Of a stretch of DNA of 64,000 bases, positions 1-15,348 are shown in pieces. The stretch lies in IMG/VR virus record IMGVR_UViG_3300032046_000010, positions 29,063-93,062 of that record, one strand, 5' to 3'. Origin of the DNA: a virus. The translations under genes and the position numbers were made by a program. Every line of letters starts with the position of its first letter. Within the stretch, counting starts at the first letter, position 1. The notes below the pieces were generated by a model. That model was not told the DNA's origin. It saw only the letters and a program-made list of their open reading frames with translations, and ran no database searches.

Positions 1-198
1 GCCGGTCTTTGGGCCTTTCTGCTGTGAAGGCTCCGGCTTGGACTCCGGTACAGGCACCAACCACTCAACAGCATCCTGCGTGGAAGCATCCACTTCCTGC
101 GTGGGCTTCGGCTCCGGGTCAGGCCGCGCTTCCGGCTCCGGCTCCGCCTTGGGAGCCTGACCGCTGTAGCGCTGCCGTACCTCATCAAGCGTCGGCAT
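1..198 (-). CDS. Hypothetical protein, 5' part only (runs off the window edge); starts MPTLDEVRQRYSGQAPKAEPEPE
   Basis: ATG at 196-198 overlaps the kinase stop (TGATG); frame is open to the window end; N-terminus resembles the 8087..8725 protein. Confidence 0.7.
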   Translation of the reverse strand, partial: MPTLDEVRQRYSGQAPKAEPEPEARPDPEPKPTQEVDASTQDAVEWLVPVPESKPEPSQQKGPKTG

Positions 199-818
199 CA
201 GCCCACCGCCAGCAGTTCCTTGGCTCGTTGAAGGGTCGCAGACCGATCCAGGCCTGTCGTGTCCAGTCTGTAGACCTCCAAGCCCTCGACCCACGATACA
301 GCCTCACAACACTTGGAGATCAGCTCAGCCTCCCTCGACATCCACCCCTTCAAGCTCAACCCCATCTCTTCAGCACGCCCCAAGATGCGCGCTGGGAAGA
401 TCCTGTCGCCCGTCCGCTCCATCCTCTTGTTGAGGTCACAGACCAGTTCCAGAACAACTCCATGCGCATCCCGCAACATCCGACCCCAGACGGCTGCGAC
501 CTCCCCGCCTTGCCCCTCCGGCAAACAAGTGAACACATGATCCAGATCCATCGCATTGTAGGCAAGCGCTGAAGGCATCCCACGGTCACAGATCACGTCC
601 GGCCGGAGCGCCCGAAACACGTCCATCTGGAACATGTCCTCGACCCACGTGTTGACCGGGAACACGGAGTGGATGCTGACCGGAAGGATGGAGCCGGGGG
701 TGTGGTCGTCGCCGTCGCGTCTGAAGCTGCGGTACAACGGGCGGTTGATGTCCTTGGACAGCGCTTTCCCCAGCGTGGTCTTGCCGGTCCCGATGCCGCC
801 TTCCAACACGATGATCAT
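198..818 (-). CDS. Deoxynucleoside monophosphate (thymidylate-type) kinase
   Basis: IIVLEGGIGTGKTT P-loop and VICDR motif of the dTMP/dNK kinase family; ATGA overlap with the upstream gene fixes the start at 818. Confidence 0.85.
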   Translation of the reverse strand: MIIVLEGGIGTGKTTLGKALSKDINRPLYRSFRRDGDDHTPGSILPVSIHSVFPVNTWVEDMFQMDVFRALRPDVICDRGMPSALAYNAMDLDHVFTCLPEGQGGEVAAVWGRMLRDAHGVVLELVCDLNKRMERTGDRIFPARILGRAEEMGLSLKGWMSREAELISKCCEAVSWVEGLEVYRLDTTGLDRSATLQRAKELLAVG

Positions 819-2083
819 GGCTGGCCTCCGAAACAACGCGATGCCGCCCGGTCCAGTCTGGCCAAGGCTTGCTCCATCAACTCCGGCGGTGAGTTGAGTG
901 GTGGACAGATGCGGAGCGGCCGGTGAGGCAGATGCGCCATCAACAGCAGTCCTTCCTCCATCGCCCGATCACGGAAGGCAAAGGCATCGCTGTCTCCCCA
1001 CTTCGGCGTCAGCGACCAGACCAACCCGGTCCCTTCCGCCTTGTCCACCCAACGGCGACAAGCGAAGCCGTTGCGCAGAATGGTCTCACAGTTGCGCACG
1101 TTCTCCAACACTCCGCGTTCCAAGCCGTCGATCAGCCAGTTGATGAGGTAGCCCGCCAACAGGTTCCCGCCGAACGTGCTGAAGTGGGTCCCGGGCTCAA
1201 AGCCCTTGGATGCTTCCTCCGTCGCCAAGCAAGCTCCGGCCGGGATGCCCATCGCCAACCCCTTGGCCAACGTGAGGATGTCCGGCTTGAACCGCTCGCC
1301 GCTCACGTCGGTGACAGCCGGGTTCATCCAAGCACACGGATAGCCGGTGCGCCCCATCCCCGACTGAACTTCATCGAAGATCACCAGGAACCCGTGCTTG
1401 GCCCGAAGCTCCGACAACCTGGACCAAAACACGGGGCCGTAGAAGCGCATCTGGTTGTGCGTCAGAACCGGAGACATGATGAGCGCCGCAATATCGGGCC
1501 AGTTGATGAGGAATCTCGCATCCGAAGGAACCTCAGACGGTGTGGTGTGTAGATGGTATGTTTCCAAGTCCTGTTCGGCCATGTAGAATCCAGACGCAAA
1601 CGGACCAAATCCCTGCTTGTAGTACGGCGTGGCGTTGGTCTGTGTGGCAGCGAGACTGAACCCTGTGCGACCGTGAAGTTGATCTGGCAATGACAAAATC
1701 ACCTTGCGCCCTGGCTCCCCCTTGATATGGTGATAGCGCCTCGCCAGCTTGATGGCGGCTTCATTGGCCTCCGTCCCGCTGTTCGCAAAGAACACACGGT
1801 CCATGCCGCAGAACGCCGTCAGCCGGTCGGCCGTCGCCGTCCGTTCCGGCACGTTGTACCCGTTGGACACATGGACAGCCTGGGTGCTGTTGACCATGAA
1901 ACACTCGATGGCACGCCTGAGATCCGTGTGCCCCAGCGAGGCCACTCCGCCATCACACCACAGGTCGAAGTATTGCCGGCCGTCCCGGTCGATCAGGAAC
2001 CCATCAGCCGCGCCTTCGATGGTGGGCTCCAACGGCGGGAGCGAAGTGCGGATCAACGACCTGGGGTCAGCCTTCCCGCCCAT
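815..2083 (-). CDS. Class-III PLP-dependent aminotransferase (acetylornithine/ornithine aminotransferase-like)
   Basis: Motifs FFANSGTEANEAAIKLAR, HGRT, FDEVQSGMGRTG, PDILTLAKG (PLP lysine), STFGGN and RICPPL; likely start MGGKADP just after the ThyX stop. Confidence 0.92.
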   Translation of the reverse strand: MGGKADPRSLIRTSLPPLEPTIEGAADGFLIDRDGRQYFDLWCDGGVASLGHTDLRRAIECFMVNSTQAVHVSNGYNVPERTATADRLTAFCGMDRVFFANSGTEANEAAIKLARRYHHIKGEPGRKVILSLPDQLHGRTGFSLAATQTNATPYYKQGFGPFASGFYMAEQDLETYHLHTTPSEVPSDARFLINWPDIAALIMSPVLTHNQMRFYGPVFWSRLSELRAKHGFLVIFDEVQSGMGRTGYPCAWMNPAVTDVSGERFKPDILTLAKGLAMGIPAGACLATEEASKGFEPGTHFSTFGGNLLAGYLINWLIDGLERGVLENVRNCETILRNGFACRRWVDKAEGTGLVWSLTPKWGDSDAFAFRDRAMEEGLLLMAHLPHRPLRICPPLNSPPELMEQALARLDRAASRCFGGQP

Positions 2084-2087
2084 GACA

Positions 2088-3053
2088 TCATTCTCCCTTC
2101 GGCTTGGACCAACGGAACGGGTCGTGCCCCCACAGTTCCGCGTAGCCTGCGATGCGATCAACCGTGTCCTGATCCCCAGTCACTTCCCCGATCAGGTCGC
2201 CGTCCGGCTGGCGTCCGTGGTTCTCACAGTCGGCCACGAGGTACAGCGGGCAGGGCGCATGAGCATCCGACCCGTCGATGCGTCGCTGGTTCTCCAGGCG
2301 GTAGACGCAAGCGTTGAAGGTGTCGGTCAGCTTGTCCACGCACGGTGGTGCGATGACCCGCCGGAACAGTGGGTCCACCTTGCGCTCCAGCTCAGCAACG
2401 ATACCACGGATGATGGGTCCCCACAGACCGTATTGCAGGATCCAGCAGGACCGCTCCCCGATGATGTGGAGCAGAGCCGCCAGGTTGAGCGACCATGAGA
2501 TGCGGTGCGTGGCCCCCAACGGGATCACGTCCCTGGCATCCTCCATCGGCACGCCCGCCTCGACCAGTGCGTTGTAGGACCGCTCCGCCGATGCCATCGC
2601 CTGTTCGAACAGCGCAGCCGCCTTCGGTCGTTGGAACACAGCATCGGCCGTCCTGTACTGCCCCTTCCTGGCGAACTCACCCATGCTCTGGATACGCATC
2701 GACTGCGACCAGAACCCGCTCTTGGCTAGGTCGGGCACGATGTCAAGTCCCATCCGCTCCGGCGAGGCGCAGACGCCGATGCGGTGACGCACCATCTGCT
2801 CACGGAAGGACACCGACACGTCCTCCAGCATGAACACGAACCCCACGTGCTCAGCGATGGGGATGCGCTGCTCCAGGATCTGGAGGAACAGAGCATCGAC
2901 CTCCCGCTTGAAGTCGGGGTCTTGGTTGCGCTTCAGTGCCAGCGCATCAGGCAGCATCAGCTGTTCCTCGCCCTTGCTGGCCTGCCAGACCGTGTAGATG
3001 GTCTCGACCGGGTTGCGGGTGCACGACAACAACGTCGCCTTGGGGTCGCTCAT
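2088..3053 (-). CDS. thyX: Flavin-dependent thymidylate synthase ThyX-like protein (divergent)
   Basis: AEHVGFVF, QMVRHR...SQSMR, VPMEDARDVIP and WSLNLAAL follow the ThyX motif order; about 20-aa insertion after RHR. Confidence 0.88.
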   Translation of the reverse strand: MSDPKATLLSCTRNPVETIYTVWQASKGEEQLMLPDALALKRNQDPDFKREVDALFLQILEQRIPIAEHVGFVFMLEDVSVSFREQMVRHRIGVCASPERMGLDIVPDLAKSGFWSQSMRIQSMGEFARKGQYRTADAVFQRPKAAALFEQAMASAERSYNALVEAGVPMEDARDVIPLGATHRISWSLNLAALLHIIGERSCWILQYGLWGPIIRGIVAELERKVDPLFRRVIAPPCVDKLTDTFNACVYRLENQRRIDGSDAHAPCPLYLVADCENHGRQPDGDLIGEVTGDQDTVDRIAGYAELWGHDPFRWSKPKGE

Positions 3054-4021
3054 CCTTCCACCTTCCTGTACTTGTCCTTGATGGCCTGCTCTGCCCTTCT
3101 GGCGACGATGCGCAGGACATCAACCCAGTCCCTCGCCCGCTCGATGTTCGAGCCGTCCGCCAGCCCTTGGTTGTTGGGCTGGTCGAACATGATGGTGTGG
3201 ACACCGTGTCTGGACAGTTCCCAGACCTCACGAGGCATGTCGTCCACGGCCGCGATCACCGTCGCCGGAGCTATGCGTCTGGTGATGGCGTCCCACTTGT
3301 CGTGATCGAACAGCAGCAAGTCCCGCTGGAACCCGTGCTCATCCAACCAGTCCGTCGTGTCGAGGTACAAGCGGGGGTACTCACGCACCGGCCGCGCCGT
3401 CAACACCACGACCTTGACACCCAGTTCACGTATCAATGCGATGGCATCCGCCGCTCCAGGGATAGGCTTGAGCTTCCGCAACGCTCCGGTCTGGTACAAC
3501 TCACGCCTGTGATCCAAGTAGGCTTGCGCCTTCGCAGAATCGCCCTCCGGCACCGGGCCGATCATGCCTTGTGTCGCCGGGTCGCCCAGGAAGTCGGCCA
3601 ACACACCATCCAAGTCGGTGACGAACACCAGCGTGCCCTCGCGCAGCTTGACCTGCTCTGCCTCCCACCGTTGGGCAACCGTCCGCGTCTTGGCGTGGAA
3701 GCCCTCACACCATTCACAACCCTGGATGCCGCAGGTCAGCAACACAGCGATGATGTACTTGAACGTGTCCACTGCTTCCTCAATCACCCGCTCCCGGTCA
3801 GCCGGTCGGGCAGAGGCCAACAAATGGTAGCGTGATCGGTCGGTGGCCTTCTGAAGCTCCGCCAGTTCCTCGTGCGCTCCCAACAGCAAATCCTTGATCA
3901 GCAATGCCCGCTGGTCCGGGTCCAGCTGTGCCGCATCGTGCCACAGACGCTGTTGTTCTGCTTGCGCTGCCCATAGCTTCAGGATGGGGCAATCGTCGCC
4001 TACCTTCAAGTCACAGGCCAT
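3050..4021 (-). CDS. MazG/all-alpha dNTP pyrophosphatase fused to a HAD 5'(3')-deoxynucleotidase-like domain
   Basis: N-terminal EELAEL...EEAVD metal-binding motif; C-terminal HAD motifs DLDGVLAD, LTARP, K and AVDD. Confidence 0.85.
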   Translation of the reverse strand: MACDLKVGDDCPILKLWAAQAEQQRLWHDAAQLDPDQRALLIKDLLLGAHEELAELQKATDRSRYHLLASARPADRERVIEEAVDTFKYIIAVLLTCGIQGCEWCEGFHAKTRTVAQRWEAEQVKLREGTLVFVTDLDGVLADFLGDPATQGMIGPVPEGDSAKAQAYLDHRRELYQTGALRKLKPIPGAADAIALIRELGVKVVVLTARPVREYPRLYLDTTDWLDEHGFQRDLLLFDHDKWDAITRRIAPATVIAAVDDMPREVWELSRHGVHTIMFDQPNNQGLADGSNIERARDWVDVLRIVARRAEQAIKDKYRKVEG

Positions 4022-4988
4022 TCGCCGCCCTCCACCGCTCCGCCCGCTCCAACGCCTTGTCCATCGTCATCCGGGGGTCCCATTGAGCGAACCGGCCCAA
4101 CACCAACACGTTGGACGGATGCTGGAACACCGGAACCTCCCCGAACACATGAGCGGTGCGGATGTATCGCGGCTTGCCGACAATGCTGGCGTCGGAGCCG
4201 AACACAGAGTTCACGTCCAACATCAGCGCCCGCTCCGACACACCTTCAGCGTTGTAGGCTCCGTCTGGCAGCGGTGACAAGCGATACAGGGAGTTGCCCG
4301 GCGTGTACGGCGTGTACACGAAGTCCCAGTCCACGAAGTCCCGACAGGATGGCGCTTCAACCCTCGCCATGTAGGCGTCTGAAGCATGGAGCGGAACCGG
4401 CGAACGGATGCCCAGCATCGACAACGTCAGTGGTAGCGGCAGCGTCCAGACCAGATGGCTGTACTCCAAGTGTTCCTGGTCGTCGCCGCTCAGGGCCGAC
4501 CGGCGAACGTCCAGTGTGTTCGCTCCTGGGTACCAAGCCACAACTCCCTTGCGCAACACCTTGACTCGGTCCTCCACAGCCCGCCCCAACGCTCCCACGG
4601 ACACCATGTACCGCTGCGGGCCTGCTTGCCCGCCCTCGTTCATCGCTGTGTCGTGGAACCCATAGGTGGTCCGGCGAGTCTTGGTGTAGTGGTGAAGCAC
4701 AAACTGGCGCAACGGTTCCTTCCCGAAGTGGTCGGCCGCAGCCTTGAATGAGTACACACGCCCCTTCAGATACAGGCCAGAACGCACAGCCCGCTGCTCA
4801 CATCGGATACCCCAGACCTTGAAAGTGCTGTCGAACAGTTCTGACTGATGGATGTAGAACAGCCCGCCTCCGCCGGGGTTGCCCCCGGTTCCAAGCGGGT
4901 CGATGACAGTGACCTCGTGGTGTTTGGCCAGCACCAGAGCCGCTGCGACTCCGGCCGGGCCTCCGCCCACGATGATGATCGGCTTCAT
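4011..4988 (-). CDS. FAD/NAD(P)-binding oxidoreductase
   Basis: N-terminal IIIVGGGPAG Rossmann motif; LVWTLPL; C-terminal LGRFAQW FAD-binding motif typical of UGM/HemY-like flavoproteins. Confidence 0.82.
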   Translation of the reverse strand: MKPIIIVGGGPAGVAAALVLAKHHEVTVIDPLGTGGNPGGGGLFYIHQSELFDSTFKVWGIRCEQRAVRSGLYLKGRVYSFKAAADHFGKEPLRQFVLHHYTKTRRTTYGFHDTAMNEGGQAGPQRYMVSVGALGRAVEDRVKVLRKGVVAWYPGANTLDVRRSALSGDDQEHLEYSHLVWTLPLPLTLSMLGIRSPVPLHASDAYMARVEAPSCRDFVDWDFVYTPYTPGNSLYRLSPLPDGAYNAEGVSERALMLDVNSVFGSDASIVGKPRYIRTAHVFGEVPVFQHPSNVLVLGRFAQWDPRMTMDKALERAERWRAANGL

Positions 4989-6097
4989 GGCGGGGCCTCC
5001 AACGGTGGCGGCTGGTTGCGTGGCGGGGGCATCTCCAGGATGCCTTCACGCATCATCCGCCCGATCAGCTTGGCAGCCGCTCGGGCAAGGTCGGGAGTCC
5101 GCACGCCTCGCCAAGCAACCGGCATCGCCGGGTCCGTCAACTGCTTCAGCTTGGCTCCCGGTAGCGCCAAAGCCTTGTCCCAAGTGGTGCTGAACGCGAT
5201 GTCCAACCGCTTGGCCAGAGGCTTCAGCTTGATCACGCAGACCTTGGCATAATGGCCGCTCGTGGCGATGTACACAGTGATGTAGTTTGACTTGTCAGTC
5301 ACACGGTTGACGAACACGTCGCCCGGGAGCGCCCCGCTGCGCTTGGCCTTCCAATCGTACCCCAACCTGAACAGAGACAACTGGAGCCGCTTCAGGAAAG
5401 CATCGACCAGCGGTTCAAGGTCGCTGAACCGCCCTGGATCGGTCGGCCGCTTCCGCTTCTCACGCTTCACCAACTTGGCCACCAGCGTGCCCTTGGCCTT
5501 CCCGGTCGCCTTCGGAACCACGATGGCAGGTGGCGTGATCTTGTTGATGTACTTCCGCTCGATGTCGGCCAGTTCCACGTTGAGCGCATGAGGGTCCGTC
5601 CGCTCATCCATGAACCGCTCCGCCGTCAAGGAGTGTTCCATCAGGTACAGCTTCAGCGAGTAGCAGCGCGCACGCCAAGTACAAGCCGACTCGACATGCC
5701 CAGACGCCTTGTTGTAGCCTCCGTCGCAGGTCGAACAGTGGTCATGGTAGCCCAGGCACTCAGGTACGGTCACCGTCATCCGCGCCTCCTGCTGCGGGAA
5801 GCCTACGTCATCAATCCACGGGATGGGAATCGAATCTTCAATGCCGTCATTGCCCCTTACCCTGAACTCATCCCAGCACACCTGGCCGACCATCACCAAC
5901 GTTGAAGCCCACCCGGCATCCCCGTCGCTCACGAACGCCACTTGGCCCCAACAGTAGCGTTCTGTGTTGATCGTCCGCTTCCCATCCTTCCATGAGGCCC
6001 ATCCGCCGGGCATCGGCTTCGGGCCTAGACTGTGACGCCGGATGATGCGGGACACGAACCTGAAGTCCAGAGGCTTGATGGACTCGTGGATTGCCAT
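4985..6097 (-). CDS. Hypothetical protein with a Cys cluster
   Basis: Start MAIHESIK just after the sigma stop; CLGYHDHCSTCDGG...ACTWRARC; ATGA coupling to the downstream gene. Confidence 0.65.
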   Translation of the reverse strand: MAIHESIKPLDFRFVSRIIRRHSLGPKPMPGGWASWKDGKRTINTERYCWGQVAFVSDGDAGWASTLVMVGQVCWDEFRVRGNDGIEDSIPIPWIDDVGFPQQEARMTVTVPECLGYHDHCSTCDGGYNKASGHVESACTWRARCYSLKLYLMEHSLTAERFMDERTDPHALNVELADIERKYINKITPPAIVVPKATGKAKGTLVAKLVKREKRKRPTDPGRFSDLEPLVDAFLKRLQLSLFRLGYDWKAKRSGALPGDVFVNRVTDKSNYITVYIATSGHYAKVCVIKLKPLAKRLDIAFSTTWDKALALPGAKLKQLTDPAMPVAWRGVRTPDLARAAAKLIGRMMREGILEMPPPRNQPPPLEAPP

Positions 6098-6098
6098 C

Positions 6099-6767
6099 TC
6101 AAGCCTCCCGCAAAACCTGACGAGCACGTGCCAGAGCGGACTTGACCCTGGCGGCCGGGATGCCCAGATGTTCCGCCAACATGTTCTCGGTGATGATCGG
6201 CTTCCCGGGTCGAACGTTGCGAGCCATGATCTCCAGTTCAGGTGGAGGACACAACCGTGCAGACAACACCAGCCGGTCCACCTCATCCAACCGCTGGATG
6301 ATGCGCTCGGTGACCCAGGCCTGCTGCTCATGTTCCTGGGTAGCTTCCAAACAGGCTGGGTCCGTCACGTCAGCATCGTTTTCCGCTGTGGAGCCGAACC
6401 CGGCCAAGCGCTGGTGCTTGGGAGACACACCATCGCCTTCATCGATGCGTGGTGCTCGTTTCAGCGCCAGTTCGTAGTTGACGATGGCCAACAGCGCGTT
6501 GCGCACAACCAGGTCAACCCAAGTGCGGAGTGCCCGGCCGCGCTCCGGCTTGTGCGTGGCCACGGCATAGATGGCGGCGATGCGAGCCTCTTGAAGCAGT
6601 TCAAAATGGTTCAAACCTGGGATGCGCTTGAACGGACGCGCCTTGGCATGGATCACGTCCTCCAGTTGAGGCAACAGCTTCGCCAGCGTCGGCTTCAACT
6701 CGTCAGGGCATGTCCAGCCTGTAGGAACGATATGCGGTGCCACCCATCCCTCCTGTCCCCATCCCAA
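6099..6767 (-). CDS. RNA polymerase sigma-70 family factor
   Basis: Region-2-like ELLQEARIAAIYAVATHKPERGRALRTWV and region-4 HTH LAEHLGIPAARVKSALARAR; true start may be the GTG near 6743 after AGGAGG. Confidence 0.85.
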   Translation of the reverse strand: MGWGQEGWVAPHIVPTGWTCPDELKPTLAKLLPQLEDVIHAKARPFKRIPGLNHFELLQEARIAAIYAVATHKPERGRALRTWVDLVVRNALLAIVNYELALKRAPRIDEGDGVSPKHQRLAGFGSTAENDADVTDPACLEATQEHEQQAWVTERIIQRLDEVDRLVLSARLCPPPELEIMARNVRPGKPIITENMLAEHLGIPAARVKSALARARQVLREA

Positions 6768-6824: not shown

Positions 6825-8048
6825 CTACCAGTCCTTGACGCCCAGCTTGAGCATCCCCATGGTGATCCACTTGGTCACCAGGGCGCGCAGGCGCGGTTCG
6901 ATGGCCTCGACCACCTTGACGCGGATGGCTTCCTTGTTGCCCTGGACCTCCACCAGCGGCTTCTTGCCGCCGACCGGCTCCAGCTTGACGCTGGCTCCGG
7001 CCTTGATGGGCCGGACGGTGAGCAGGTGCGGCTTGCCGCCCATGTTCATCGTCGTGGTGTAGACGTTGCCCTTCACCACGCCGCCCTTCTCCGGCTTCGG
7101 CTCCGTGCTGCGGGGCCGTCCCGGGCCGCGCTTGGCGGGCTGCGCCGCCGGGGCGGGGGTTGCCGCCTTGGCCGCCGGGGTCGGCTTCGCGGCCGGGGTC
7201 GGCTTGGCCGCCGCCGGGGCGGGGGTCGGCTTCGCCGGGGTCGGCTTCGCCGGGGTCGGCTTCGCCGGGGTCGGCTTCGCCGCCACCTTGCTCTTGGTGT
7301 CCTGCTTGCCCTTCGTTCCCATGTTGTCCTCCTGGCCGTCATCGGCCGTGGTTGCGCCGTCGGCATCGCTGCCTTCGGCATCCTCCCCGTTCCCGTCGCC
7401 GTCGCCGGCATCATCGTCGGCATCGGCATCGGCATCGTCGTCGGCATCGTCGGGGTCGGGGTCCGGGTCCGGCTCCACGACCTTGGCCGGAGGCTTGCCG
7501 GTGCCCTTGGCCTTGGCCTTGGGCTGCTCCGGCTCCGGCTCGCCCGCGCCCGCGTCCGGCTCCGCCGTCGTGGCCTCCGGTTCCGCATCCGGCTCCGTGG
7601 CCTCCGGCTCCGTGGCCTCCGGCTCCGCCGTCGTGGTCGTCGCCTTGGCACCCTTCTTCACGATGATCTTCTTGCCCATGACGCCTTCCTCCTGTTGACG
7701 GGGTCCACCCGCCAGCTTCGTGGTCACCGGGATGTCCAACGCCTCCCGTGTGAACCGTTTGCCCACTTCGTGGAACCGGAAGATGAACAACCCGTCCATC
7801 CCCAGACCCACGCGCTTGATGATCTCCATCAGCTGGTCGTCGGTCGGCTCCGACTCCCGGCTGTCCAACACCACCACCGACTCCCGCTGCGTCTTGCTGT
7901 AGTAGCCCGCCGCGCAGAAGCTCCCTTCCAGCAACCCAGTGGTCTTGCCGTTCTGGAACACGCCAGTCACCAGCGACACCAACCACACGTCCGGTGCGAC
8001 GGGCTCAACCACCAGTTCCTTGCCGACATTGGGTTCGTATCCGATCAT
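6825..8048 (-). CDS. Low-complexity nucleoid-associated-like protein (acidic tract, AKPTP repeats, AT-hook)
   Basis: D/E-rich tract, (AKPTP)n and KRGPGRPRS AT-hook; strong GC3 codon pattern. Confidence 0.7.
   Translation of the reverse strand: MIGYEPNVGKELVVEPVAPDVWLVSLVTGVFQNGKTTGLLEGSFCAAGYYSKTQRESVVVLDSRESEPTDDQLMEIIKRVGLGMDGLFIFRFHEVGKRFTREALDIPVTTKLAGGPRQQEEGVMGKKIIVKKGAKATTTTAEPEATEPEATEPDAEPEATTAEPDAGAGEPEPEQPKAKAKGTGKPPAKVVEPDPDPDPDDADDDADADADDDAGDGDGNGEDAEGSDADGATTADDGQEDNMGTKGKQDTKSKVAAKPTPAKPTPAKPTPAKPTPAPAAAKPTPAAKPTPAAKAATPAPAAQPAKRGPGRPRSTEPKPEKGGVVKGNVYTTTMNMGGKPHLLTVRPIKAGASVKLEPVGGKKPLVEVQGNKEAIRVKVVEAIEPRLRALVTKWITMGMLKLGVKDW
7174..7282. repeat. 15-bp coding tandem repeat GCCGGGGTCGGCTTC (AKPTP units)
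   Basis: Directly visible tandem copies. Confidence 0.85.
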
Positions 8049-8086: not shown

Positions 8087-8725
8087 CTAGTACACCTTGT
8101 TGATCGCCATCCGCTGGAGCCAGTCGATCAGCTGTGGAGCGCCGTCGCCGCGCTTCGGGTCCGACATGAACTGGACCGTCTTGGATGCCCACGGCTTCAA
8201 CTGGCAGATCATGAACTTGCGGTTCCAGACCCGGCACACCAGCGTAGCTCCGCCCTGCCGACCGTTGGGCGACCCAAGCTTGATCTCGCCCTTGCTGTAG
8301 ATGCCGCCCTTGCTGTCGGTGAACGACTCCATCGGGCCGTCCCACGGGCACGGACCACGGTGACCGGCGAGGGCATCCACGCCGCTCTTGACCGCCATCA
8401 GCACGTTGGACTGCTTGGCGATGCGGTCCCGCTTCTCAGGGGTCAAGGTCGCCGGATCAACACGCCGCTGAGCCTCGCTGGGCGGAGTGGCCTTGCCGTC
8501 CGTCGTCGTCGGGACATCGACCGGCTTGGCCTGCTGCTTGGCAGGCACCACCGGCTGCGGCTTCGGCTGTTCCACCCTGGACTCCGGCTTGGAGGTCGGG
8601 GTCTGGGACTCTGCGATGGCATCCTCACGGGCCTCCCGGGCACGCAGCTCAGCCTCAGCATCCGGCTCCGGCTGGAGTGCGACTCCAACTGTGAACCGCT
8701 TTCTCAAGTCATCCAACGTCGGCAT
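8087..8725 (-). CDS. Hypothetical protein (MPTLDDLRKRF N-terminus, P/E-rich linker)
   Basis: AGGAGG SD before the ATG; preceded by conserved motif A. Confidence 0.75.
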   Translation of the reverse strand: MPTLDDLRKRFTVGVALQPEPDAEAELRAREAREDAIAESQTPTSKPESRVEQPKPQPVVPAKQQAKPVDVPTTTDGKATPPSEAQRRVDPATLTPEKRDRIAKQSNVLMAVKSGVDALAGHRGPCPWDGPMESFTDSKGGIYSKGEIKLGSPNGRQGGATLVCRVWNRKFMICQLKPWASKTVQFMSDPKRGDGAPQLIDWLQRMAINKVY

Positions 8726-8780: not shown

Positions 8781-10979
8781 CTACTGCGCCACCCGACGCA
8801 CCCGGCCGTTCATCAGCTTCGCCGCCACGGCCTTGAACAGCGCCTTGGGGAGCGCCGCCAGATCCCAAACAACCTCCGCATTGCGATAGAAGCTCGTCAC
8901 CGCATCGCTCTGGATTCCGATTCCCACGACCTCGATGCCGCGCTTTTCAGTCGCCCGCACCACGTCCTTCAGGTGCCGCCCCTCGATGCTACGCTCACGC
9001 TCATTGCGCCGGGTGTAGTTGCCGCTCACGTTGGCGCGCTTGGGGTCGTAGGTTCCGCCGGTCACGGTCGAAGTCCCGGCCGCAGGTTGACCATCCGACA
9101 GGACGATCAGCACCTTCCGCTCCTGGGGCTGCTGCGCCAGCAGGTCAGCGACCATCTGGAGCGCATCGCCGTCAGCGTTGTTCGCCCGGCCGTTGATCTT
9201 CACCAGGCGGGAGCGCACACGCCGGAACTGCTCGCTGAAGCTCTTGTACTGGTACAGGTGGATCGACTCATTGCGGCCGTTCCACCAGCTTCCAGCGTCC
9301 AGCGTGTCGTCATCAGTCGTCACCATCCCGCTGGTGAACCCGTAGATTGCGAAGGGCACGTTGAGGGCCGTCAGCGTCTCACCCAGGGCAACCGCCGCCA
9401 GCTGGGCCGTCGCCGCCTTGACTCCGCCCATCGAGCCGGACTCATCAACCAGCACCGCAACCGCCGGGACCTCATCCAGCGTCGTGATCTTGCGGGAGAA
9501 CACGCGCCGCTCGCCGGTCACCGCCCGGTACAGAGCCGCGCTGTCCAGCTTCCCTTCCTCCTGGTCGGGGTCGTTCTGGACGTCAGCCTTGCCCTTGAGG
9601 ACCATCATCAACTTGGAGCGGAGGCCGCCAACGACTCCCGCGACCATCTGCTTCAGCTGGGCGTAGTGCGCATCGCTGCTCAACTCTTGGACGATGATCT
9701 TGTCAGCCGCCTTGGCGCTTGGCCGGGCCACGTAGCGGCCATCGCTCTGCGCCGCGCTGGAGGCGTCCTTGCTCAGCTGGTCGCGCACCGCGTCCATCAT
9801 GTCCTTCGCAGCGTCATCGAACAGGTCATCAACCGGCTTGGAGTCGGTCGGGTCATCATTGATCTTGGTGTTGTCGCTGGCGCCCACGTTGCCGCCCGCC
9901 TCGCCGGTCTCAGCCTCGCCACCCTCCTGGTCACCCTGATCCTCGCCAGTCCCTTCCTGCTCGCCCTTCCCGGCCGACCCTTCCTGGTTGCCTTCCTCGC
10001 CGTCCTCACCCTCAACAGCGCCGTCGTCGCCTTCCTCGCCCTCGTCACCGCCGTCCTCATCCTCGCCCTCGCCCGCACCACCCTCACCGTCGTCGCCCTC
10101 GTCGCCCTCGTCGCCCTCGTCATCCGACTCGCCCTTGGACTCGCCCTTGGTGTCCTGCTCGCCGTCCTCAGCACCGTCGTCGCCCGCACCGTCGTCGCCC
10201 TCGTCAGCCTCGCCCTCATCACCCTCATCGGCCTTGCCCTGCTCGCCCTTGCTCTGGGGCTTGGACTCGGGCTTGGACTCGGGCTTGGACTCGGGCTTGG
10301 ACTCGCCCTGCTCGCCGTCCTGCGACTCCGGCTGGGTCGGCTGGGTCATCGCGTCCCGCAGCGTCTGCTCAACCAGGTGCATCATCGACTCAACCTTGTC
10401 GTACCCAGCGCCGCGAAGCTCCGCCATCCTGGGGAGCAGCTTGGCAACCGCGCCTTCCAGCCGGGGGTCCAAGGTCACGGCCGACTCACCGAACGACCGG
10501 AGATACAGTTCAGAACCGAACCCGTGAAGCCCACTGGTGTAACCCGGGGTCGCCGCGTTGCGCTTGATCAGCTTGACGCCGTAGCGCCGGAGCGCCGACA
10601 GGTTCCGCTCAACGCCCTCAAACGGGTTGCCCATCTCATCGTGGATGTCGGCCACGATGTTCAGGATGCTGTGGCGGGTCTTGGAGACCTTCATCGCCTC
10701 GGTGATCAGCTCACTCGGCAGCTTCACGGTGGCGCCAGCCGCCCGCGCCGCAACCGCCGCTTGCTCTTCACGAGCGTGGCAAGTCTCATGGTCCAGCATC
10801 CCCTCGACCACCGCCACAACGTCCTCACCCATCTCATCGACGTTCTCAGGCAGCTGGATCAGCTTCTGGTCGAACAGGAACCGACAGGCGGTCCCGGCCT
10901 GGACTACCTTCAACCCGGTGTCGGCGCTGAAGGTCCTGGCCACCTTCCCCATCGTTCCTTCCTGCGTCCGGTTCTTCAT
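8781..10979 (-). CDS. cobT: CobT-like VWA protein (MoxR AAA partner)
   Basis: MIDAS VLVDESGSM, NADG and LSDGQP; long acidic linker; N-terminal DHETCH; lies downstream of the CobS-like ATPase. Confidence 0.85.
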   Translation of the reverse strand: MKNRTQEGTMGKVARTFSADTGLKVVQAGTACRFLFDQKLIQLPENVDEMGEDVVAVVEGMLDHETCHAREEQAAVAARAAGATVKLPSELITEAMKVSKTRHSILNIVADIHDEMGNPFEGVERNLSALRRYGVKLIKRNAATPGYTSGLHGFGSELYLRSFGESAVTLDPRLEGAVAKLLPRMAELRGAGYDKVESMMHLVEQTLRDAMTQPTQPESQDGEQGESKPESKPESKPESKPQSKGEQGKADEGDEGEADEGDDGAGDDGAEDGEQDTKGESKGESDDEGDEGDEGDDGEGGAGEGEDEDGGDEGEEGDDGAVEGEDGEEGNQEGSAGKGEQEGTGEDQGDQEGGEAETGEAGGNVGASDNTKINDDPTDSKPVDDLFDDAAKDMMDAVRDQLSKDASSAAQSDGRYVARPSAKAADKIIVQELSSDAHYAQLKQMVAGVVGGLRSKLMMVLKGKADVQNDPDQEEGKLDSAALYRAVTGERRVFSRKITTLDEVPAVAVLVDESGSMGGVKAATAQLAAVALGETLTALNVPFAIYGFTSGMVTTDDDTLDAGSWWNGRNESIHLYQYKSFSEQFRRVRSRLVKINGRANNADGDALQMVADLLAQQPQERKVLIVLSDGQPAAGTSTVTGGTYDPKRANVSGNYTRRNERERSIEGRHLKDVVRATEKRGIEVVGIGIQSDAVTSFYRNAEVVWDLAALPKALFKAVAAKLMNGRVRRVAQ
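10258..10305. repeat. 12-bp coding tandem repeat GGCTTGGACTCG x4 (ESKP)
   Basis: Directly visible. Confidence 0.85.
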
Positions 10980-11000
10980 CTTCGCCTCCACGCTCCTACC

Positions 11001-11020
11001 AGTAAGCGAAAACCGGGCCG
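11001..11020 (-). promoter_or_regulatory. Conserved upstream motif A, copy 2 (minus strand CGGCCCGGTTTTCGCTTACT)
   Basis: Intergenic between cobS and cobT; identical to 12300-12319. Confidence 0.75.
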
Positions 11021-11046
11021 TTTGTGAACGGCCCTGGTTCCCAGTC

Positions 11047-12261
11047 CTAGTAGAACACGCGGTCAACGATGGCCTTCACGTAGGCGCGGTCATCCTTGCC
11101 CAGCCGGTTCAGGATGGCGACCGCAGCCGCCTTCCGCGCGTTGCCCCACTTCACGGTCAGCTTGGCCCAGGTGAGCAGCCGCCGGGTGCTCATCGTACAG
11201 AAGCACTCTTCACGGATCAGGCCGTCGCGGACCTTGCGAGCGATGTCCACCATCTTGCCAGCCACGTCCTTGGTGACGCCGGTCTTGGTCACGAGCACGC
11301 TGATCTCCTGGGGTCCCTGGAGATAGGAGACTTCCATCACCACGCCGAACCGATCCAGAGTGGCCTCGTTCAGCACGTTGGTCCCGGTGTACATCCCGCT
11401 ATCGTCGCCGCGCCCCAGGGTGTTCGCCGTAGCGATGATGCGGAAGTTGGAGTGGACCTTCACGACCTCGCCGTTGTTCTCTGCCAGGACCAGCGGGTGA
11501 CCGGGCTCAAGCACCGACTGAAGCCGCATCATGATCCGCGCGGGAGCCGCGTCCAGCTCATCGATGATCAGCCAGAAGCCCTTGCGCGCGCACTCCGTCA
11601 GGATGCCATCCTTCCAAAGCACGACCGTCGCACCAGATTCCGACTCCGCCAGCACCTTCTCACCCACGAAGTCCGCCACCCTGAACTCGCCGTTCATGTT
11701 GACGCGCTTGGTGGGCTGGTTCATCAGGGACGCCAGCTCAAACGCCAGGCTGGTCTTGCCACAGCCCGCCGGGCCGACCATCAGCACGTTGGTGTCCATC
11801 TCAACGCCAACCGCCATCTGCTCCAGGGTCTCATCATCGAAGTCGAACATTTCATCGTGCTTCGGAACGTACAGTGCGTCATCCTCGCACACGTCGTCAC
11901 GGACCTTCAAGACCGCCTTGCCGATGGAGAGGCAACCGGGCGGGAGCGCCGGAGCGGCCGGGGTCGGCTTCGCGGCCGGGGCAACCGGGGCGGGAGCGGC
12001 CGGGGCGGGGGTCGGCGTGGACGACGGAACGGTCCAGCCGGTGCCGCGCGCACCCTTGGTGTGGCCCTTGCTCAGCTGACGCCGTCCGTAGGTGCTGATC
12101 GTCTTGGAACCGGGGTACTGGCGGCGGTATTCCATCGTGCTCATCCCGTGGGCCGACTTGAGGTGGACGGCCAGCGTGTGGTAGTACTGCCCACAACGTT
12201 CGCACTTCACCATCGCGTTTCCGTCGCGGTCGGCCGGGTTGAAGTTTGCCATGTTCCTCAT
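11047..12261 (-). CDS. cobS: CobS/CbbQ-like MoxR AAA+ ATPase with an N-terminal C2H2 zinc finger
   Basis: Walker A GPAGCGKTS, Walker B LIIDELD, ATAN, LNEATLDRF and MSTRRL; N-terminal CERC...HLKSAHGMSTMEYRRQYP. Confidence 0.9.
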   Translation of the reverse strand: MRNMANFNPADRDGNAMVKCERCGQYYHTLAVHLKSAHGMSTMEYRRQYPGSKTISTYGRRQLSKGHTKGARGTGWTVPSSTPTPAPAAPAPVAPAAKPTPAAPALPPGCLSIGKAVLKVRDDVCEDDALYVPKHDEMFDFDDETLEQMAVGVEMDTNVLMVGPAGCGKTSLAFELASLMNQPTKRVNMNGEFRVADFVGEKVLAESESGATVVLWKDGILTECARKGFWLIIDELDAAPARIMMRLQSVLEPGHPLVLAENNGEVVKVHSNFRIIATANTLGRGDDSGMYTGTNVLNEATLDRFGVVMEVSYLQGPQEISVLVTKTGVTKDVAGKMVDIARKVRDGLIREECFCTMSTRRLLTWAKLTVKWGNARKAAAVAILNRLGKDDRAYVKAIVDRVFY

Positions 12262-13043: not shown

Positions 13044-14060
13044 CTATGTGAAACGTGGCAAATCCGAAACGCGCCGCTTCAACAACATTACCCTCGCTTG
13101 GCTCGCCGGCACCGCCTTGGAAACCAGTTCCGCGATGTACGTAGTGGGCGATTCAGCCGGATCGGACTGGTTGGCGTTAGGGTACAGCGCGATCTTGACG
13201 TTGTCTAGTTTCTCCGATTCCGCCACTACGTAGCTGGCCGCGTCTGGATCCAGTAGCATCACCTTCGGCCCGTCTAACATGAGAAGCATCGCCAATTGGG
13301 AGCCACGTATGGACTTGCCCATCAGGCCTAACGTCCCGAAACCAGCACGGAATCCAGCCAACGTATCTAATGGCCCTTCGACGATTAGCCACGGTGGTCC
13401 GAAGGGTAGTGCAACCTCCCATCCGAACAGTAGGTGCCCCACTCCGTCGCCTCCCAGGTAGCGCGGCATCATCCCCGGGAGGGTCGCCCGGGTCGTGAAG
13501 GAACGTCCCAAGGGGCAGGAAACCGGGAACACTACACGGGAAGCGTAGCGCCCGCTGAGGCAATAACCCAGGCCGTATGCCTTGATCTCTGCGTCCTGTA
13601 CGCCCCTCTGCCTCAGGTAGCGCGGCACCACTAGGCGTCCGTCCTGCTCGCAAGGCGTGTACTCTGCCGGGAGCGGTGTGTCCACGACCTCCTGCTTGCG
13701 CTCCCGCCGGAGCGCCTCCAAACGCTCCGTCAGCTCACCCTTGATGTGCGGGATGTAGGGCATCGACTCCGATGCGATGATGCGCCGTGCCTCGCCGGGT
13801 CCGACTCCAAGCACACCTTGGACCAACTGGACGGGACCTCCGGCGATGGAGCAGCACTTGCAGTCCCAAGCGCCGGTCTTGGTGTTCACGTACAAGTGTG
13901 CTGGTTTGCCGCAACTGAAGCAGTCCATGACCACGTGGTCGCGGCCGGACGGCCGGAGCCGACCCACCGACCTGCTGAGCAGTTCCTTGATGTCGAAGCG
14001 CAGCGGGTCGCGCCTCGACCCGTCCCGCCGCTCGATGTGTGCGCCGGGATCAAAGCTCAT
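13044..14060 (-). CDS. dnaG: DNA primase (zinc-binding domain + TOPRIM)
   Basis: CFSC...H...WDCKCC zinc-binding domain, RVVFP, LIVEGPLD and LLDPD TOPRIM motifs; coupled to the helicase. Confidence 0.9.
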   Translation of the reverse strand: MSFDPGAHIERRDGSRRDPLRFDIKELLSRSVGRLRPSGRDHVVMDCFSCGKPAHLYVNTKTGAWDCKCCSIAGGPVQLVQGVLGVGPGEARRIIASESMPYIPHIKGELTERLEALRRERKQEVVDTPLPAEYTPCEQDGRLVVPRYLRQRGVQDAEIKAYGLGYCLSGRYASRVVFPVSCPLGRSFTTRATLPGMMPRYLGGDGVGHLLFGWEVALPFGPPWLIVEGPLDTLAGFRAGFGTLGLMGKSIRGSQLAMLLMLDGPKVMLLDPDAASYVVAESEKLDNVKIALYPNANQSDPAESPTTYIAELVSKAVPASQARVMLLKRRVSDLPRFT

Positions 14061-15348
14061 CGTGGGTTTCCTCCGGTGCCGTGTCCATCCTCATCCGCTC
14101 CAACTCTGCGACCAAGGGCACCAACACGTTGCGCTTCCCTGAGCGCCTCTTGCCCAAGTACATCAGGAGCCGTTCCTCACCCTTGTCACCCTGGAGTGCG
14201 TTGATCGAGATGTACCAGTCCGCGATCCTCACCTTCTCATAGTTGTCGGCCACCGCCTCCTTGGTAGCGATCTTGTTGACCCAGGACTTGTGAACCTGTG
14301 TTGTGGCCACGACAACGCAATGCTCTTCTTCAGCCAAGCCCTTCAGGTCATAGTAGACCTCGGTGGACTCAAACCTCTTGTCGTTGTACTTGCGAGCGGA
14401 GCGGAGGTGGTCAGGCGAGTCCACCAACACGAGGGTCGGCCGGCAACCAGCATTTGACCTCTCACGGATCACGGCGCGGATGTCGGACACGGTGCCGATG
14501 TTGACACCCAGCCGCTCCATCCGCAACAGCTTGTTCATCCGGTCCCAGTTCGCCTCCATCCAACGTGATAGCAGCCGGTGCTCTGCCTTCATCAGATGTC
14601 GCTCACGGATGTTTTCTTCCAACACGCCGGTGAACCGCGACATGTAGCGCCCGGCCCTCGACTCGTTGTCCATCTCCGTCCCGACATCAAGCGTGAAGAT
14701 GCTGCGGCTCACGGCCTTGGCACCGATGTTCATCGCTGTGATGGACTTGCCGACGTTGCTGATGCCTGCGATGAGGACCAGTTCGCCCACCTTGAACCCG
14801 CGCCATCGCTTGTCGAGGTAGCTGAAGCCGGTCGGCACGAAGTCCCGCGTGTCCTCTGCTAGCTTGGGTGAGATGAGCTTCTTGACTACATCCAGGATGC
14901 CGGTGTCTCCGTCGCGGGTCGCCCTGGCCTGGACTCGCGCCTGACCATCTGCCATCGCCGTCTGAAGTGCGTCCGCATCCTCCGCCTCGATGGCCTTGAC
15001 CAGCTGTTGAGCCACAGCCGTTCCCTGCTGTAGCTTGAGCCTCCGGTTCATCTCTACCAGGGAGGCTCCTGGCGAAGCATCCTCCAGCTTCATCGCCTTG
15101 ATCTGGCGGATGACACGGATGACCGCCAGCAGTTCGCCATCGTCCTTGAACTGGGCCTGCGCCCGCTCCATCAAGAACCGGAACCCGGGAGCCTCCGCGT
15201 GTTCCAGACAACACTGGCGTGCGATGTCCCAGACCCAGTTGAGCTGCGGTGAGCTGTACTGGTACCCGTTCAACTGGTTGACCGCCCTGGTCAGGAAACC
15301 GATGTCTTGTACGCAGCGCCGGAGGACACCAAGCTCAAGGTCGCTCAT
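14050..15348 (-). CDS. dnaB: Replicative DnaB-like helicase
   Basis: PTGFSYLD, GELVLIAGISNVGKS, TEM, VLVD, LKGLAEE..VVATTQ, ADW and KRRSG. Confidence 0.92.
   Translation of the reverse strand: MSDLELGVLRRCVQDIGFLTRAVNQLNGYQYSSPQLNWVWDIARQCCLEHAEAPGFRFLMERAQAQFKDDGELLAVIRVIRQIKAMKLEDASPGASLVEMNRRLKLQQGTAVAQQLVKAIEAEDADALQTAMADGQARVQARATRDGDTGILDVVKKLISPKLAEDTRDFVPTGFSYLDKRWRGFKVGELVLIAGISNVGKSITAMNIGAKAVSRSIFTLDVGTEMDNESRAGRYMSRFTGVLEENIRERHLMKAEHRLLSRWMEANWDRMNKLLRMERLGVNIGTVSDIRAVIRERSNAGCRPTLVLVDSPDHLRSARKYNDKRFESTEVYYDLKGLAEEEHCVVVATTQVHKSWVNKIATKEAVADNYEKVRIADWYISINALQGDKGEERLLMYLGKRRSGKRNVLVPLVAELERMRMDTAPEETHDEL

Follow-up and report, generated by a model that had tools for sequence, protein, structure and literature searches.

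The right-hand 64 kb of the IMG/VR virus record IMGVR_UViG_3300032046_000010 (93,062 bp, 62% G+C, CheckV completeness 91%), hereafter the window, begin with an operon of five enzyme genes encoding a flavoprotein, a MazG-like/HAD fusion protein, a ThyX-like protein, a class-III aminotransferase, and a P-loop kinase. The genes are tightly coupled and conserved as a set in related phages, and the encoded enzymes combine intact catalytic residues with altered substrate-side motifs. We propose, with a probability of roughly 45%, that the operon constitutes a pre-replicative tailoring route for pyrimidine nucleotides, which leads to an amine-bearing 5-substituted deoxyuridine monophosphate (dUMP) and feeds the phage DnaE polymerase. 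Thus classed, the operon is a variant of the phage base-replacement pathways, and one with new enzymology if the chemistry holds.

The initial annotation had placed the five enzyme genes at 198-4988 and described them as one tightly joined operon. The junctions read from the sequence agree with this coupling, but the unit is longer than annotated: a sigma factor gene and the gene of a 370-aa protein with four cysteines (unk370) precede the enzymes, and a 217-aa protein gene leads from them into dnaE. The minus strand carries the five enzyme genes and every other gene in the left end region of the window; start codons were refined by Shine-Dalgarno sequences and a plot of G+C at third codon positions (GC3 frame plot). 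The enzyme families originally assigned to the five genes are borne out by Pfam, PHROG, profile, and fold matches, with the MazG-type domain as a candidate assignment. Pfam was run on ~40 larger open reading frames (ORFs) out of ~110 in the genome, and family alignments were made for ThyX (A1, 30 members), the flavoprotein (A2), the kinase (A3, 21 members), unk370 (A4), the aminotransferase (A5, 21 members), and the MazG-HAD fusion (A6). Structure models were assessed by the predicted local distance difference test (pLDDT) and compared via Foldseek and VIA, with Z scores and root-mean-square deviations (rmsd). In gene order, the unit comprises:

6099-6743, minus strand: sigma-70/ECF-like factor, first gene of the coupled unit (Sigma70_r2 5.9e-5, r4 2.3e-3, TIGR02937 2.8e-8, GC3 frame)
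4985-6097, minus strand: unk370, 370-aa Cys4 protein without a known family (alignment A4, GC3 frame)
4011-4988, minus strand: flavin adenine dinucleotide (FAD) protein, a flavoprotein resembling UDP-galactopyranose mutase (UGM) (Pfam sees the Rossmann motif only; alignment A2, model)
3050-4021, minus strand: MazG-like and HAD/NT5C fusion (Pfam NT5C 38.3 bits; alignment A6)
2088-3053, minus strand: ThyX-like protein, a predicted flavin-dependent one-carbon transferase (Pfam Thy1 74.9 bits; fold match)
815-2083, minus strand: class-III, ArgD-like aminotransferase dependent on pyridoxal phosphate (PLP) (Pfam Aminotran_3 1.3e-57)
198-818, minus strand: P-loop kinase, thymidylate-kinase/deoxynucleoside-kinase-like (phrog_761 thymidylate kinase 1.4e-10)
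1-198, minus strand: start only of a 217-aa protein (MPTLDEVRQRY...), joined by a TGATG junction and running off the window toward dnaE

The sigma factor gene stops 1 nt before the ATG of unk370. ATGA overlaps join unk370 to the flavoprotein, MazG-HAD to ThyX, and the aminotransferase to the kinase, while the flavoprotein and MazG-HAD genes overlap by 11 nt, ThyX and the aminotransferase are separated by 4 nt, and the kinase gene runs into the 217-aa ORF via TGATG. A single 448-aa ORF at 4985-6331 was rejected, as the GC3 frame plot resolves two genes (sigma factor and unk370) here. Promoter and terminator scans gave signal at chance level. The polymerase outside the window, to which the initial annotation had pointed, proves to be of the DnaE type, and the module adjoins its gene; further downstream follow RecA, a Mre11/Rad50-like fusion, and a 5'-3' exonuclease.

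The ThyX-like protein passes the Pfam cut-off for Thy1 (74.9 against 24.8 bits) and fails that of the TIGR02170 equivalog (57.0 against 87.9 bits). Its model (pLDDT 84) matches every solved ThyX and the ThyX-like UMP/dUMP methylase PolB at Z of ~14 and no other family, superposing with an rmsd of 2.8-3.6 over 195-211 of its 321 residues. With canonical ThyX (T. maritima, M. tuberculosis, PBCV-1) and PolB of polyoxin biosynthesis it shares the fold (Z 13-14, ~200 residues), the RHR motif, and the R147/R174 arginines. E68, Q86, R89, H90, R91, R174, N190, and R201 align with T. maritima E58, Q75, R78, H79, R80, R147, N163, and R174 (HMMER, PDB chains), the contacts to dUMP and FAD. These aligned contact residues are invariant or nearly so in the 30-member alignment, and the counterparts of S88 and R90 are retained by motif position. 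Against canonical ThyX and PolB, however, identity is 16-20%, and the protein differs by a 20-aa insertion in the signature, the lack of DSHAQ, four cysteines, and a C-terminal extension. RHR (89-91) and SxR (118-120) of the signature RHRxxSxxxxSxR are invariant, but their spacing is not canonical, with 20-35 residues inserted family-wide (~20 in the window). The DSHAQ segment after the R174 counterpart is gone and an invariant S/G-C-W-I-L-Q stands in its place; the counterparts of T. maritima H53, R165, and N169 are changed, and the C-terminal extension comprises ~100 residues. The four cysteines C203, C238, C249, and C268 are invariant, a pattern that suggests a metal site adjoining the active-site helix.

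This 4-Cys ThyX clade has more than 349 homologues (best matches 45-69% identical), and its members are found in viral contigs only; a pattern scan of 185,579 species genomes, a weak one with two peptide patterns only, gave no relative. A search for fused forms returned only an intein-containing copy, and inteins occur in some members of the clade (P0076 and P0121; PF14890 / PF07591; 458 and 649 aa). No ThyA-type synthase (Thymidylat_synt) was matched in the phage genome or in 8 complete relatives, and the ThyX-like protein is the sole thymidylate-synthase homologue of the phage.

The flavoprotein carries the motifs GGGxSG, GGLKYxH, HYxKTR, MND, YTPY, and GRFAxWxxRxTxD. Beyond the Rossmann motif, neither Pfam nor NCBIfam holds a sequence family for it, and its profile aligns with PDB entries over the first 36-93 residues only. 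Its model (pLDDT 80) is best matched by UGM (Z 22.0 with 317-318 of 325 residues aligned; rmsd 3.4-3.5 over 312-320 residues), with 14-15% identity over the structural alignment, followed by protoporphyrinogen oxidase (Z 19.5) and then by renalase and amine oxidases. The protein shares the fold of UGM and lies outside the UGM sequence family. As judged from the model, its fold is of the UGM/protoporphyrinogen-oxidase/amine-oxidase type, not that of a TrxR-type NAD(P)H-flavin reductase, and it belongs to a phage-specific subfamily with putative catalytic residues kept and substrate-side motifs altered. The family is virus-only (Atlas clusters 95-100% viral). The initial annotation had the flavoprotein set the redox state of the C5 substituent, for example as 5-formyl; the fold, which is not of the alcohol-oxidase type, speaks against this role.

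Directly upstream of the flavoprotein, unk370 is always found. Its cysteines C114, C124, C139, and C145 are invariant, its linker is basic, and its C-terminal domain is conserved; searches gave neither a Pfam, PHROG, or NCBIfam match nor an Atlas or PDB relative. In two contigs of relatives (L005 and L006) it is fused to the sigma factor. Rather than adding a sixth enzyme to the pathway, it probably acts as a partner linked to DNA or transcription.

In the fusion protein, the HAD assignment holds: NT5C is matched with 38.3 bits (Pfam cut-off 24.8), the HAD motifs (DxD, TARP, K, ED) are conserved as D136xD138, T208, K242, and E260-D261, and the profile matches cytosolic and mitochondrial deoxyribonucleotidases, the cytosolic PDB entry at 3e-6. 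The MazG-type helices (EExxE...DxxK) are represented by E51, E52, E55, D85, and K88, which are invariant (the second MazG helix is expected to read (E/D)xxD), and the profile matches PDB entries of small MazG-like pyrophosphohydrolases at 6e-5 to 5e-4; Pfam matches to PRA-PH and dUTPase_2 are weak and under their cut-offs. No trimeric dUTPase was matched in the phage genome.

The aminotransferase contains an Aminotran_3 domain match (195.8 bits, 1.3e-57). K274, D237, Q240, R139, and R385 are invariant or nearly so, and the core is retained with FHGRT, DEVQxGxGR, the lysine of LAKG, and the C-terminal arginine. The protein stays under every NCBIfam cut-off, the best being argD with 230.7 bits against 372. 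In all 21 family members, the EPxQGEGG loop is changed to APVLGNN, whereas true ArgD and most other fetched viral class-III aminotransferases keep E(P/A)(I/V)(Q/L)GE(G/A)G. By these motifs, it is a phage-specific subfamily with predicted catalytic residues intact and a substrate-side motif altered. One strong match (L102) was excluded from the subfamily as part of a true argB-argD pair with EAIQGEGG, and matches in 50,697 phage records were set aside as bacterial-type ArgD/AstC in contaminated or unannotated records. A polyamine theme, combining the ArgD-like aminotransferase with a weak spermidine-synthase-like gene and a PIG-L deacetylase, was dropped as part of the module because 8 complete relatives have no SpeE-like gene.

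The kinase shows the motifs EGxNGxGKT and DRSxPSAxAY and a basic lid. Its 21-member family profile matches SPbeta YorR (3e-11) as well as thymidylate kinases, the latter with E values from 4e-9 upward, which argues for a small-molecule kinase of deoxynucleoside monophosphates (dNMPs) or related (d)NMP/(d)N substrates and not for a 5-hydroxymethyldeoxyuridine (5-hmdU) DNA kinase. Against the dTMP kinase equivalog TIGR00041 it scores 20.1 bits, below the cut-off of 83.25.

From these families we infer the chemical steps, the substrates, and the final base of the proposed route. The MazG-type domain would convert dUTP, and probably dTTP, to the monophosphate and thereby supply dUMP. With FAD and methylene-tetrahydrofolate, the ThyX variant would put a one-carbon unit on C5 of dUMP and, instead of or besides reduction to methyl, leave an oxidised or trapped C5 substituent. 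Class-III aminotransferases interconvert aldehydes and primary amines; together, the UGM/amine-oxidase-type flavoprotein and the ArgD-like aminotransferase would take the substituent through an aldehyde/amine pair to an amine-bearing side chain. The thymidylate-kinase-like enzyme would then phosphorylate the new dNMP, which the host kinase would refuse, and the HAD nucleotidase domain would remove the competing canonical dNMP. A hydroxymethyl to formyl to aminomethyl scheme, along the lines of the initial annotation, would be chemically coherent. A variant akin to MnmEG/MnmC, with amine trapping of the methylene intermediate, oxidative trimming, and methylation, would fit equally well. The features that pre-replicative base replacement of the T4/SPO1/S-2L kind has at the gene level, namely a synthase homologue, a dNMP kinase, and a remover of the canonical nucleotide, are present. 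By analogy, the dedicated thymidylate-kinase-like enzyme and the fusion of dNTP pyrophosphatase and dNMP phosphatase are the usual companions of base replacement.

The five families also co-occur elsewhere, as expected in the initial annotation. In IMG/VR, the five-gene module is adjacent in ~21 distinct contigs of uncultured phages, several of them complete (104-116 kb, terminal repeats), and profile-guided scans with the ThyX, flavoprotein, and aminotransferase alignments gave the same contig set. This co-occurrence exceeds chance. The order in the relatives is cobS-cobT-sigma-(Cys4 protein)-flavoprotein-MazG/HAD-ThyX-aminotransferase-kinase-DnaE-RecA, and identities to the window proteins are 35-56% for ThyX, 27-39% for the aminotransferase, 27-38% for the fusion protein, 24-40% for the kinase, and 21-31% for the flavoprotein. 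Within the module, three gene orders occur (ThyX-aminotransferase-kinase; aminotransferase-ThyX-kinase; aminotransferase-kinase-(second aminotransferase)-ThyX), and adjacency kept through such rearrangement points to functional linkage rather than mere synteny.

Several relatives carry additional genes in the cluster. In at least 5 lineages, a 250-270-aa protein with invariant FGGSGWH and HADFN motifs and weak TRM5/TYW2 and Methyltransf_25 matches is encoded inside or beside the module (L005:6430-7200, L009:11133-11885, L011:9192-10004, L015:9180-9983, L105:5619-6422); a profile search found no solved relative of it, and the gene is absent from the genome of the window. Further inserts are a Methyltransf_11 gene in L025, an MT-A70 gene in L010, and, in a 105-kb relative, a second class-III aminotransferase paralogue between kinase and ThyX (L029:8695-9921). 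As candidate tailoring genes, the FGGSGWH protein, Methyltransf_11, and the second aminotransferase would support the tailoring route.

Among known systems, the SPO1/SP8-type 5-hydroxymethyluracil phages, PhiW-14, and SH-Ab 15599 follow a logic like that of the proposed route: a thymidylate-synthase homologue forms the new dNMP (from dUMP and methylene-tetrahydrofolate), a dTTPase/dUTPase both clears the competitor and yields dUMP, and the phage polymerase incorporates the new nucleotide (PMC5977210, PMC13458397). The pool step of base replacement is carried out by a dTTPase in PhiW-14 (PMC5977210) and by a dTTPase/dUTPase in SH-Ab 15599 (PMC13458397). In contrast to the operon, which is without a ThyA homologue, the SPO1, PhiW-14, and SH-Ab 15599 systems use ThyA-family hydroxymethylases and contain neither an aminotransferase nor a UGM-like flavoprotein; moreover, only the operon has its pyrophosphatase fused to a dNMP phosphatase. 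The post-replicative hypermodification pathways of M6, ViI, PaMx11, and SP10 resemble the proposed route in shaping a side chain with an amine at C5 by means of PLP- and flavin-dependent enzymes (Lee et al, 2021, PMC8989533), and 5-aminomethyl-dU is a known intermediate in PaMx11 (PMC8989533). They act, however, on DNA via the 5-hydroxymethyluracil DNA kinase 5-HMUDK and aGPT-Pplase, and their PLP enzymes are decarboxylases, not class-III aminotransferases. Modification of tRNA U34 by MnmEG/MnmC (cmnm5U to nm5U to mnm5U) is alike in logic only, comprising flavin/folate one-carbon transfer to uracil C5, amine trapping, an FAD amine oxidoreductase, and an S-adenosylmethionine-dependent methyltransferase (PMC8989533). 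It employs GidA/TrmE instead of ThyX, acts on RNA, and has no aminotransferase; some operon relatives have a methyltransferase-like gene in their cluster as well.

Within the 93-kb genome, neither the helical domain of 5-HMUDK (HMUDK_hel) nor TET/JBP (Tet_JBP) was matched, and an aGPT-Pplase match did not turn up among the ORFs scanned with Pfam-A. For aGPT-Pplase3, the one clade searched by accession, the genome gave no match, but neither did the control; PF18745 was rejected as aGPT-Pplase2 since it is SNAD2. The initial annotation had set the operon apart from ThyA-hydroxymethylase and post-replicative pathways, which accords with the missing matches to ThyA, the 5-HMUDK helical domain, and TET/JBP. 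Its further statement that no known pathway combines ThyX with a class-III aminotransferase is upheld by full-text literature searches, which found no published modification pathway built on ThyX or using a class-III aminotransferase.

Cultured phages offer distant relatives only. Megablast of 7 kb and tblastn of the flavoprotein and kinase against 50,697 phage records gave no match, DnaE has no cultured relative above 35% identity, and the best ThyX matches in the phage collection are PB1-like Pseudomonas phages. The nearest analogue in cultured phages is the replication module of Pbunavirus. Four genes of the Pbunavirus LBL3 follow the order seen here: gp63, remotely homologous to the flavoprotein (hhalign probability 95%, E 1.8e-8) and carrying C-terminal GRFATW (GRFAxW); gp57, ThyX-like (27% identity, E 2e-17) with 2 of the 4 cysteines aligned (R-x-C, P-x-C); gp55, a HAD phosphatase; and gp53, a polymerase of the DnaE type. 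As in the window phage, no ThyA and no TET/JBP were found in the LBL3 genome. In contrast to the operon, the Pbunavirus stretch examined holds no class-III aminotransferase or thymidylate-kinase-like kinase, its ThyX has RTR where the window ThyX has RHR, and its phosphatase gp55 is of the HAD_PNKP type, with motif I alone in common with the window fusion.

In Pbunavirus F8 and 14-1, about a quarter of the thymidines, in TG context, are replaced by sugar-like derivatives, with no genes assigned (Yee et al, 2025, preprint, PMC12191111). The modification was thus reported in F8 and 14-1, whereas the genes compared here are those of LBL3. Together, the LBL3 homology and the Pbunavirus modification raise the prior that a cassette of ThyX, flavoprotein, and phosphatase serves thymidine modification; these are leads, not proof. 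For the Thy1-family protein of phage SP-15, a function as hydroxymethyluridylate synthase has been guessed without test (Kropinski et al, PMC5977210). A more far-reaching proposal, which we consider doubtful, would see in the virus-only 4-Cys ThyX clade no thymidylate synthase but the first enzyme of a flavin-dependent pathway leading to C5-substituted deoxyuridylates. In the lineage of the window phage, the UGM-like flavoprotein and the altered class-III aminotransferase would then complete a thymidine substitute with an amine while it is still a nucleotide, and the Pbunavirus cassette would be the source of its thymidine hypermodification.

Several observations weigh against a tailoring route. 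The conserved dUMP- and FAD-binding residues of the ThyX-like protein fit plain dTMP synthesis equally well, and alcohol oxidation is not known for the flavoprotein fold. Nucleotidases, MazG, and dNMP kinases also occur in phages with canonical DNA, such as T5 and many ordinary phages. The Illumina sediment metagenomes gave normal assembly of the phage DNA. The phage encodes a protein of the uracil-DNA glycosylase (UDG) family, which argues against dU-DNA but speaks neither for nor against 5-substituted uracil. Because a large share of the co-occurrence falls in a single syntenic lineage of phages, common descent accounts for some of it. Further, the genes are separable. In other phages, the 4-Cys ThyX stands beside PolA and primase without aminotransferase, flavoprotein, or kinase; its neighbour in these PolA-type phages is an HD-type 5'-deoxynucleotidase or a SPASM-domain gene, as in L023:34-567, where a gene with a SPASM iron-sulfur domain, cut by the contig end, lies directly upstream of it. 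Conversely, a complete 104-kb genome (G001, contig L059, IMGVR_UViG_3300028610_002211) carries an unk370 homologue and the flavoprotein directly upstream of dnaE, and no MazG/HAD, 4-Cys ThyX, kinase, or class-III aminotransferase was detected in the whole genome. The one ThyX-like gene that it carries (G001:33000-35000) is of a different kind; it lies ~20 kb from the flavoprotein and has SRTRIG in place of RHRIG, as in Pbunavirus gp57. The flavoprotein and its Cys4 partner thus occur without the other four genes, so the five cannot form a single pathway that requires them all. The initial view of the five genes as a single pathway is hence borne out only in part: they are adjacent in ~21 contigs, but the ThyX clade and the flavoprotein also occur apart from the remaining genes. 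Given this separability, the operon is better described as a core cassette of flavoprotein, ThyX variant, and phosphatase, shared with Pbunavirus, plus lineage-specific add-ons, namely the aminotransferase, the kinase, and, in some relatives, the methyltransferase-like gene.

The most serious rival, and a real possibility, is an ordinary module for dTMP supply and pool sanitation with two auxiliary genes. ThyX would be a plain synthase with a structural or redox role for its four cysteines, the kinase a dTMP kinase, MazG a dUTPase-like enzyme that also supplies dUMP, and HAD a balancer of dNMP pools; flavoprotein and aminotransferase would be unrelated or would support, for example, flavin reduction and amino-acid or polyamine metabolism. 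The conserved ThyX contacts agree with this, as does the position of ThyX as sole thymidylate-synthase homologue in a phage that, without ThyA, plainly needs a source of dTMP. The missing trimeric dUTPase would be replaced by a MazG-type one, ArgD models are the best matches of the aminotransferase, a UDG is present, the ThyX clade occurs alone beside polymerases, and the flavoprotein is separable from the other genes. Such a module, however, does not explain the translational coupling of a class-III aminotransferase between ThyX and a dNMP kinase, or its retention in the cluster across three gene orders. Moreover, the aminotransferase is without the loop typical of ArgD/GabT/OAT, ThyX lies under the equivalog cut-off with the segment after the R174 counterpart rebuilt, a dNMP phosphatase fused to the pyrophosphatase would waste dTMP, and the flavoprotein is not of the NAD(P)H-flavin reductase/TrxR type.

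A mixed pre- and post-replicative pathway of the PhiW-14/Pbunavirus kind appears unlikely. Here, the cassette would only make a precursor like 5-hydroxymethyl-dUTP and remove dTTP. The aminotransferase, possibly together with the flavoprotein, would make the donor, a free amine or a sugar derivative, and enzymes that escaped detection would attach it to DNA after replication. The known hypermodifications of thymidine start from 5-hmdU and are completed on the DNA, with free amines or amino acids (PMC8989533, PMC13458397), and the Pbunavirus modification is context-specific (TG, ~1/4 of T), which fits a post-replicative step (PMC12191111). The closest fold to the flavoprotein binds UDP-sugars, and the neighbouring Cys4 protein, sigma-fused in some relatives, may bind DNA. 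Such a pathway has to contend with the missing matches to the 5-HMUDK helical domain and TET/JBP (aGPT-Pplase3 being unmatched together with its control), with a kinase of the small-molecule thymidylate-kinase/deoxynucleoside-kinase type, and with the ORFs of the replication half scanned with Pfam, which show no DNA transferase or glycosylase except UDG and MT-A70. Very improbable, finally, is inherited synteny of the replication module only, with aminotransferase and flavoprotein unconnected with nucleotides. CobS/CobT, sigma, DnaE, and RecA are equally syntenic, and the close relatives all come from one uncultured lineage, but contiguity survived internal rearrangements and insertions, the genes overlap translationally, and protein identities as low as 21-35% imply a long divergence through which the cluster persisted.

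To our knowledge, the characterised pathways of thymidine replacement and hypermodification all start from a ThyA-type hydroxymethylase or from thymine oxidation in DNA. If the tailoring route is correct, a pathway that is built on ThyX and completed by a transaminase would be an enzymatic solution of a new kind, and the phage DNAs that evade restriction and CRISPR would gain a further modified base. Such a pathway could likewise account for the thymidine derivatives recently reported in PB1-like Pseudomonas phages, which are in therapeutic use, and for the preparation of modified dNTPs its enzymes would be practically useful. Should the ThyX variant prove ordinary, the analysis still defines a large virus-only ThyX clade, a probable metal site, and a phage aminotransferase subfamily.

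In other DnaE phages of IMG/VR, genes for a class-III aminotransferase, a LuxE-like acyl-protein synthetase, a LuxC-like acyl-CoA reductase, and a radical SAM/4Fe-4S protein stand in a row (L132:6900-13000, L153:6100-12900). This row adjoins a 5'-3' exonuclease, 6-9 kb from dnaE, and its enzymes follow an acid to aldehyde to amine logic. By analogy, the LuxE/LuxC-adjacent aminotransferase shows a putative aldehyde-to-amine logic within a replication module, and the row could represent a further route of nucleobase tailoring, with an aminomethyl-deazapurine as one conceivable product.

The phage DNA is present only in Logan contigs of two sediment metagenomes, and the listed sequencing runs include no RNA dataset that contains it. 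Just upstream of the coupled unit, at 8781-12261 of the window, lie genes for a CobT-like VWA protein and a CobS-like AAA ATPase, the synteny of which extends to most relatives. In its left arm, upstream of the window, the genome encodes a PIG-L/LmbE-type de-N-acetylase (genome positions 4674-5444), a weakly spermidine-synthase-like protein (6933-7841), the adenine methyltransferase MT-A70 (13465-14109), and the UDG-superfamily protein (14545-15174), the gene of which is kept in 7 of 8 complete relatives. In L010, the relative of the 217-aa protein has an ExoX-like C-terminal motif. The N-terminus of the 217-aa protein (1-198, MPTLDEVRQRY) resembles that of an unrelated protein at 8087-8725 of the window (MPTLDDLRKRF), both following MPTLD(D/E)xRxR(F/Y).

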